Origin: Escherichia coli
Lineage (GTDB): Bacteria > Pseudomonadota > Gammaproteobacteria > Enterobacterales > Enterobacteriaceae
Assembly (NCBI RefSeq): GCF_030384885.1
Contig: NZ_CP128613.1
Strand: one strand, 5' to 3'
DNA: 64,000 nt
In this document: positions 10,818 to 11,252 of the stretch, piece after piece
How the letters are laid out: every line of letters starts with the position of its first letter
How positions within the stretch are numbered: the stretch's first letter is position 1
The notes under the pieces: model-generated
The model's database searches: none
Seen by the model: the letters and a program-made list of their open reading frames with translations, nothing else
What the model was told of the DNA's origin: nothing
Made by a program: the position numbers and the translations under genes

Positions 10818-11252
10818 ACGTAAACTCTTTCCGGTTGTTGTCGATAGCTCTATATCCCTCAACCGGAAAATAATAATACCAAAATGCTTAGCGCGGCTAA
10901 TAATCGCCTAATCCAAACGCCTCATTCATGTTCTGGAACAGTCGCTCAAATGTTCTCAGGATACGCGGTTCGCTGATTTCCAGGAAATTGTCGTAATTCA
11001 GCGACCTGTCCCGTGTATCACGGGCCTGCTAATCCATCAAGGAATGCATTGCGGAGTGAAGTATCGAGTCAAGCCAGATTTCGCGATCAGGATTCTGTGT
11101 GATGATTACATTGCCAGGCCCGGGGCTGTTTAGTCATCGCCGCACAGTGCTGAGATTTCAACCTGTTGCAGGGAAAATGAGTAGATTTAGGGCAAGTGTG
11201 CTGCCAAACCCAACTTTTACGCGGGGAAGGTAGATTTCGTTGGAAGGATAAA

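Follow-up and report, generated by a model that had tools for sequence, protein, structure and literature searches.

A gene-free composite scar with an internal DUF4942 pseudogene fragment lies between cscB and argW in Escherichia coli

Introduction

What fills the interval between the sucrose permease gene cscB and the 3′ end of the tRNA gene argW in Escherichia coli, and what does it say about how the csc genes came to lie there? The passages on csc in PMC11251922, PMC3032704, and PMC4366372, which cite Jahreis 2002 and Moritz & Welch 2006, place these genes at the argW recombination hotspot, where they replace dsdC/dsdX. Stx phages and phage Kapi1 have also been reported to integrate at argW (PMC10132054; bioRxiv 10.1101/2021.04.09.439263). 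The 64-kb stretch of DNA analyzed here (the window) resembles the csc regulon of the argW-dsdCXA region as given in the relevant passages of PMC11251922 and PMC3032704, with cscR, cscA, cscK, and cscB between a dsdX 3′ remnant and argW. Those passages do not describe the content of the spacer, and the right boundary of csc and the DUF4942 anatomy given below come from the present analysis.

Results and discussion

Composition of the spacer

The spacer between cscB and argW comprises 435 bp (10818..11252). On its left is cscB, a 415-aa ORF whose stop codon ends at 10817 (Pfam LacY_symp, E = 1.8e-191) and whose DNA is identical in strain 2013C-4282, where it is annotated as an oligosaccharide MFS transporter. 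On its right is argW, a tRNA-Arg(CCT) gene on the minus strand (11253..11327; Rfam tRNA score of 63.4 bits), which is the sole tRNA predicted by ARAGORN in the window and which faces the spacer with its 3′ end at 11253. A first-pass annotation of the window had described the spacer as 435 bp without an intact gene, and the end of cscB, the ARAGORN position of the tRNA 3′ end, and the ORF list all agree with this description. The ORFs of at least 30 aa within the spacer are on the plus strand only and are mechanical frames of 30–44 aa. Scans of the spacer found no promoter-like site and no consensus terminator, and the tRNA alone reached the Rfam gathering threshold, with no other family doing so. 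The spacer is a non-functional composite scar made of four pieces; its features are listed in Table 1.

Table 1 Features of the cscB-argW spacer and its left neighbor
Feature	Position	Strand	Description
cscB	9570..10817	+	Sucrose permease, LacY family; left bound of spacer
cscB trailer, right end of imported csc module	10818..10885	+	Conserved in Citrobacter
Hairpin, 10-bp stem	10828..10869	+	Just past cscB stop codon; no U-tract
csc/DUF4942 junction interval	10886..10913	.	28 bp, no detectable homologue
DUF4942 pseudogene, distal segment	10914..11115	-	nt ~242/253-445 of 846-nt gene, aa ~85-148
DUF4942 pseudogene, proximal segment	11116..11202	-	nt ~96-198, aa ~33-66, different frame
Orphan sequence	11203..11252	.	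50 bp abutting tRNA 3′ end; host-side arm of attB for IntS-type phages

A DUF4942 remnant on the minus strand

The closed minus-strand frame that had been noted in the spacer, 43 codons at about 10897..11028 with a stop upstream, is exactly as claimed, running from a TAG at 11029..11031 through 43 sense codons (QARDTRDRSLNYDNFLEISEPRILRTFERLFQNMNEAFGLGDY) to a second TAG at 10897..10899. Two intact 281-aa DUF4942 proteins from other E. coli loci, used as tblastn queries against 10700..11400, matched this region with E = 3e-22. The match occupies a single frame of the minus strand at 10906..11133, has 55% identity over 76 aa with an in-frame stop included, and aligns to residues 76-151 of the intact protein. 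The conceptual translation also scored 31.3 bits against Pfam PF13708 (DUF4942) with E = 2e-7, above the gathering cut-off of 25 bits for this family, and covered profile positions 5-62 of 190, which is about 30% of the domain.

The homology extends beyond this frame and is split in two. In the common E. coli allele, the spacer matches nucleotides 96-198 and 253-445 of the 846-nt DUF4942 gene, and a frameshifting 55-nt deletion between short GC(G/A)ATGAAA repeats splits the two segments. In the window allele, the distal block aligned directly at the nucleotide level to an intact DUF4942 gene; the proximal block, which is 6 bp shorter here than in the common alleles, gave a local score of 28, a value reached by 0 of 1000 shuffles (mean 8.3, maximum 17). 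An exhaustive phmmer search likewise returned two colinear DUF4942 stretches, at aa 41-65 and 85-148. The distal segment contains the 43-codon frame and the TAG at 11029..11031, which is a nonsense mutation private to the window allele (other alleles have TCG), and the downstream TAG lies beyond the end of the DUF4942 homology.

As judged from these alignments, the remnant is a 289-bp internal fragment of a DUF4942 gene (10914..11202, minus strand), with about 34% of the gene left. The frame had tentatively been taken for a C-terminal remnant, which did not hold up, since the residues retained are about 33-66 and 85-148 of a 281-aa protein and are thus internal, and its proposed extent of 132 bp was incomplete, the DUF4942 homology covering 289 bp. 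Nor is the fragment an intact member of the family, as it has a partial domain, the frameshifting 55-nt deletion, an in-frame TAG, and no start codon. Set against the intact genes for WP_001280435.1 (19SZHZ886Rt, beside tRNA-Ile) and WP_001290170.1 (CE10, beside setC), to which it is homologous over aa ~33-66 and 85-148, it is frameshifted and interrupted and retains about a third of the gene at 55% protein identity. The nearest intact DUF4942 proteins have 55–60% identity, and the E. coli paralogues are 74–78% identical at the nucleotide level. Word-indexed and exhaustive protein searches recovered no closer intact relative, only orthologous fragments and these 55–60% intact proteins.

The frame had also been proposed to be what is left of an integrase or prophage gene from a decayed prophage at argW. 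argW is a known phage site, and intS prophages are found there in K-12, O157, and 2013C-4282, but these argW prophages sit between the spacer and argW, outside the spacer itself. Searches of 10700..11400 by tblastn with IntS, TorI, and the O157 recombinase gave no match at E <= 1, and CbtA, DUF957, and the Citrobacter methyl-accepting chemotaxis protein (MCP) described below gave no match either. The missing integrase matches, together with the tblastn and above-threshold Pfam matches to DUF4942, refute this reading and leave it with practically no probability. The broader suggestion that the closed frame derives, by decay, from a mobile-element gene did stand, DUF4942 being the terminal gene of CP4-type islands, and it was not undone by a lack of homologues, which were readily found.

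RefSeq genomes annotated with PGAP carry ORFs of 50-85 aa in this spacer under the name 'DUF4942 domain-containing protein' in many cases. These short ORFs are pieces of one old pseudogene, and a spacer pseudogene that NCBI PGAP has already annotated in other E. coli is in itself ordinary and already known. What is added here is the two-segment anatomy with the 55-nt deletion, the right boundary of csc with its MCP trace, and a test of the rate of change against the neutral expectation.

Distribution and neutral drift of the spacer

Among 5,426 complete E. coli genomes, 2,636 carry a single copy of the spacer and 2,645 have the 3′ end of cscB. Each of the flanks outside the DUF4942 homology was found in only about 2,630–2,640 genomes, and no part of the spacer was present in the csc-negative genomes of the same 5,426. 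The spacer is absent from K-12 and CFT073, and the K-12 attR-dsdC flank is unrelated to it, so it is not core sequence and instead travels with csc; a match to core DNA in csc-negative strains, which would have spoken against an insertion, did not appear. An exact 21-mer of the remnant was absent from the GTDB species representatives.

Five alleles of the spacer are colinear and have breakpoints common to all. Orthologous spacers in SK6988 (AB9Q16_RS13135), O157:H7 Z1768 (ILQ48_RS28360 / WP_371289776.1), and UPEC 536 (I5P61_RS07560) share the locus, the breakpoints, and the 55-nt deletion with the window and are colinear throughout; in all three PGAP labels them as an incomplete or short 'DUF4942 domain-containing protein'. 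The window allele belongs to a minority haplotype, present at >=99.3% identity in 38 of the 5,426 genomes, with the next-best spacer match at 91%. Aligned to the common alleles it is 8.5–9.5% diverged and differs in the 6-bp deletion and the private TAG.

The divergence of the spacer is close to the synonymous rate of its surroundings. Jukes-Cantor distances between the window and common alleles are 0.09-0.10 for the spacer, and the neighboring genes have dS of 0.09-0.20 and dN of 0.000-0.016 in the same comparison. Within the fragment, variable sites are spread over the three codon positions as 8/11/7, and dN/dS is about 0.8-3.6. The SK6988 allele has acquired its own independent TGA. The scar formed a single time and is now in neutral drift. 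That it is old follows from the same breakpoints in every allele examined and from divergence near the synonymous rate.

These data also bear on whether the spacer yields a functional small protein, either from the closed frame or from the 50-73-aa PGAP ORFs of other alleles, or a regulatory RNA. In its favor, the DUF4942 ORFs are annotated here in many RefSeq genomes, and the spacer has been kept in about 2,600 genomes. However, the window allele lacks a start codon and is broken by a TAG within the DUF4942 homology, the SK6988 allele is interrupted independently, and about 30% of the DUF4942 domain is all that is left. In addition, dN/dS has values of about 1 and above, variable sites are even over the codon positions, and the spacer has no promoter-like site and no Rfam family except tRNA above the gathering threshold. 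We consider a functional product highly improbable.

The window as a whole is 93-96% identical to K-12 over about 60 kb of core genes, with dS of 0.09-0.23 between flanking genes and those of mainstream E. coli, and its source appears to be either a deep haplotype or an Escherichia lineage that is itself divergent. Two regions away from the spacer also differ from K-12. Between mlaA and fadL, where K-12 has yfdF (352 aa), the window has a 399-aa ORF on the minus strand (13566..14765) with no Pfam match, which is a hypothetical protein in 2013C-4282 (RefSeq) and in which the K-12 and SK6988 alignments break at 14361..14397. In the region of the K-12 yfc fimbrial operon, 21993..26067 is 79% identical to K-12 and 26068..28528 has no K-12 match, and 21993..28528 appears to be a fimbrial allele that has diverged or been replaced.

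Right-hand limit of the csc module

The csc module includes the first 68 bp of the spacer. An exact-pattern scan for the cscB-proximal sequence, covering one genome per species, found it in Citrobacter sedlakii, three genomes of the C. amalonaticus group, and at one Escherichia sp. contig end. By blastn, C. sedlakii and C. amalonaticus match the 68 bp past cscB at 82–86% identity, and the match ends at 10885. cscB itself is 78–83% identical to Citrobacter at the nucleotide level, and cscK and cscB of the C. sedlakii / C. amalonaticus group were both observed within this range. In Citrobacter the trailer runs directly into the ATG of a 370-aa MCP gene (Pfam MCPsignal, E = 3.7e-52), and csc lies in an fbp-mpl-yjgA-pmbA-cybC context with the MCP gene adjoining and no tRNA nearby. 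The E. coli sequence ATAATAATACCAAAAT aligns opposite Citrobacter ATAACGATGCCAAAAT, which takes in the first ~10 nt of the MCP gene. The Citrobacter sedlakii / C. amalonaticus locus is thus a candidate for the donor-like context of the E. coli csc module.

The end of the Citrobacter match at 10885 puts the right limit of csc at about 10885/10886. DUF4942 nucleotide homology stops at 10914, and the junction between the module and the remnant lies in the 28 bp that separate these two points. This interval may include about five further degenerate DUF4942 codons. The expectation that the spacer would hold a junction of horizontally acquired DNA was therefore correct, the junction being that of csc at about 10886..10913. 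At the other end of the module, the left csc junction is at about 5652..5675, K-12 homology (dsdA and the last ~160 nt of dsdX) stopping at about 5652, and a 219-bp dsdX 3′ remnant (~5457..5675, minus strand) is annotated by PGAP in the identical DNA of 2013C-4282. The csc module accordingly spans about 5653/5676 to 10885, or ~5.2 kb.

The trailer contains a hairpin whose predicted RNA folding energy, -16.6 kcal/mol (z = -3.9), was matched by none of 200 shuffles. Its stems are invariant in the five E. coli alleles and in Citrobacter. It was not called by the consensus terminator scan, and possibly serves as a 3′-end stabilizer or a weak terminator of cscB.

Comparison with intact DUF4942 islands

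In 19SZHZ886Rt and CE10, intact DUF4942 is the last gene of an island whose other genes encode a GTPase, Ag43, DUF932, an antirestriction protein, RadC/JAB, DUF987, the YeeU/CbeA antitoxin, the CbtA toxin, DUF5983, and DUF957, in each case followed by DUF4942. We take this gene set ending in DUF4942 to be the conserved distal module of islands of the CP4-44/CP4-57 type, the K-12 cryptic prophages. DUF4942 of CE10 adjoins setC, which in K-12 is presumably next to selC. If the CE10 island is at selC, DUF4942 would lie downstream of the tRNA there, on the same strand and pointing away from it, as in the window, where the minus strand carries argW and, downstream of it, the fragment. At the tRNA-Ile locus (ileX) of 19SZHZ886Rt, DUF4942 is convergent to the tRNA; this layout is thus not universal, and the argument from orientation is suggestive and supportive but not decisive.

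In comparison to CP4-type islands, the spacer lacks DUF957, DUF5983, cbtA, cbeA, and radC, and the gap from the fragment to argW is only 50 bp. No distal module was found upstream of DUF4942 by tblastn, CbtA and DUF957 giving no match and DUF5983 a match at chance level (E = 0.64). There is no integrase beside the tRNA, as 10700..11400 contains no ORF and no likeness to IntS or to a recombinase (the queries were IntS and one recombinase), and no attL/attR direct repeat bounds an element, the sequence being single-copy in the 64-kb window with three mismatches allowed. Judged by integrase, repeats, and distal module, the spacer is not an integrative element, and it is recognizable only as a PF13708 pseudogene fragment. 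A tblastn match to DsdC (E = 0.026, 29% over 31 aa) was on the wrong strand and was treated as chance.

How the scar may have formed

The history that we prefer, at a probability of roughly 0.65, is that a CP4-type island once stood at argW and was trimmed to a DUF4942 stub by an internal deletion and by the replacement that came with csc. Such an island would have integrated at the argW 3′ end with its integrase beside the tRNA and with the CbtA/CbeA module and DUF4942 at its far end. An internal deletion would then have taken out everything from close to attL up to and including nt ~95 of DUF4942. The arrival of csc would have cost the locus the 3′ half of DUF4942 as well as attR, dsdC, and the greater part of dsdX. 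The incoming csc module of ~5.2 kb would have been cut from a Citrobacter-like context with an MCP gene after cscB. This would have taken place only once, before the window's minority haplotype split from the common E. coli csc haplotypes, and the scar would have drifted neutrally ever since it formed. The live elements left would be the hairpin in the cscB trailer and the attB core of argW, with the right edge of the spacer as its host-side arm.

No CP4-type island or longer DUF4942 remnant was found at argW among the genomes examined, and in a search of 5,426 genomes with a chimeric dsdC + DUF4942 query, none had an intact, suitably oriented DUF4942 gene less than about 1.4 kb from dsdC. The absence of any part of the spacer from csc-negative genomes, and of the 21-mer from the GTDB representatives, likewise counts against a lost island, as does the modest identity (55–60% in protein) of the closest intact DUF4942.

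The same absences favor an account in which the DUF4942 piece and the 50-bp orphan were never part of an island at argW. They would have been imported together with csc, having been joined to it in an intermediate donor, or picked up as filler DNA when dsdC-dsdX was replaced by illegitimate recombination, and would then have spread by homologous recombination in the flanking core genes. This would suit the almost 1:1 co-occurrence of spacer and csc (2,636 and 2,645 genomes), the lack of any spacer part in csc-negative genomes, and the failure to find an island or longer remnant at argW, and the identity of only 74–78% between the fragment and its E. coli paralogues is compatible with a foreign origin. 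In Citrobacter, however, the only other csc context recovered, homology ends 68 bp past cscB and is followed by the MCP gene and not by DUF4942. Further, a CP4-type island would be expected to leave behind just such a fragment, 50 bp from the 3′ end of the tRNA gene, encoded on its strand and directed away from it. Between haplotypes, the spacer has diverged in step with yfdC and mlaA, which fits long residence at this locus, although co-import before the split is still compatible with it. We regard co-import or filler DNA as the main rival, possible but less likely.

A more speculative extension of the preferred history gives the island a part in the acquisition itself. An argW-anchored CP4-type island, or recombination at its broken distal end, might have captured cscRAKB from a Citrobacter-like chromosome in which cscB is followed by MCP, with E. 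coli keeping the first ~10 nt of the MCP gene, before the island decayed to its 289-bp stub. We hold this to be doubtful.

The orphan sequence and the attachment site

Between the DUF4942 fragment and argW is the orphan sequence, which was found in csc+ genomes only, once per genome. It showed no significant likeness to the region upstream of DUF4942, to the argW flank of CFT073, or to the flanks of CPS-53 in K-12, and the 62 bp beside argW, compared with the DUF4942 5′ region, the sequence downstream of argW in CFT073, and the integrase side of K-12 CPS-53, gave nothing above shuffles. A resemblance to the K-12 attR (pawZ)-dsdC flank seen by eye (TTTACG...GGATAAA) was rejected, as its score of 18 compares to a shuffle mean of 16.3 and was reached by 124 of 500 shuffles. 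These 50 bp could be the integrase-proximal edge of the lost island, and as they match nothing, their island origin is only conjectural.

The last 15 nt of argW (11253..11267, TGGTGTCCCCTGCAG) are the attachment core of KplE1/CPS-53. As at the KplE1/CPS-53 att site in K-12, where the prophage has the 15-nt argW 3′ end on one side and its copy pawZ on the other, the core is at the tRNA 3′ end, and it is identical to both K-12 copies and both copies in 2013C-4282. The 15-mer is doubled at the prophage ends in those two genomes, and single in the window, which is unoccupied and has no pawZ-like repeat. The first-pass annotation had likewise found no attR-like second copy of the argW 3′ end in the window, and we confirmed this for the whole 64 kb with exact 12- to 25-mers and with a 17-mer at up to three mismatches. 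The lack of an attR-like repeat denotes an empty attB and not a decayed one. The attB core of argW is intact and empty in the window. The host-side arm of this site is the spacer in the window and the dsdC flank in K-12, and the two flanks are unrelated.

In 2013C-4282, a spacer 100% identical to that of the window is followed directly by TGGTGTCCCCTGCAG and then by a torI..intS prophage remnant (KplE1-like), with the intact argW 3.7 kb further on; in this case the spacer is the host-side arm of attR. With a KplE1-like remnant at the identical site in that strain, the argW attB is probably still a target for IntS-type phages. The locus had been summarized as an old, decayed insertion and not an active element. 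The decay is indeed old, as shown by shared breakpoints and near-synonymous divergence, but the site is not dead, its attB core being intact.

Two further observations concern the edge of the spacer at argW. In the window allele, 11247..11252 is GATAAA, the same as the phage-side 6 bp of the KplE1/CPS-53 attL in K-12 and 2013C-4282, and with them attP and attB are identical over 21 bp instead of 15. The common allele reads GGTATC at this point. The GATAAA match may be fortuitous or may be a trace of earlier integration and excision. O157:H7 Z1768 has a degenerate copy of the argW 3′ end of ~22 nt with a 1-nt deletion at the spacer edge (~8441..8462 in the numbering of that locus), a duplication longer than the 15 bp of KplE1, and after it a different element, in which a gene for a 'recombinase family protein' and P22-like genes lead up to intS.

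Implications

The cscB-argW gap is settled as gene-free, and its importance beyond annotation is small. The right boundary of csc is narrowed to a 28-bp interval, and the spacer may be of use for typing the variable argW/dsd/csc region and for reconstructing the acquisition of csc by E. coli. Should the proposed capture of cscRAKB by an argW-anchored island prove true, it would provide the donor context and the exact right breakpoint (10885/10886) of an operon found in about half of E. coli.
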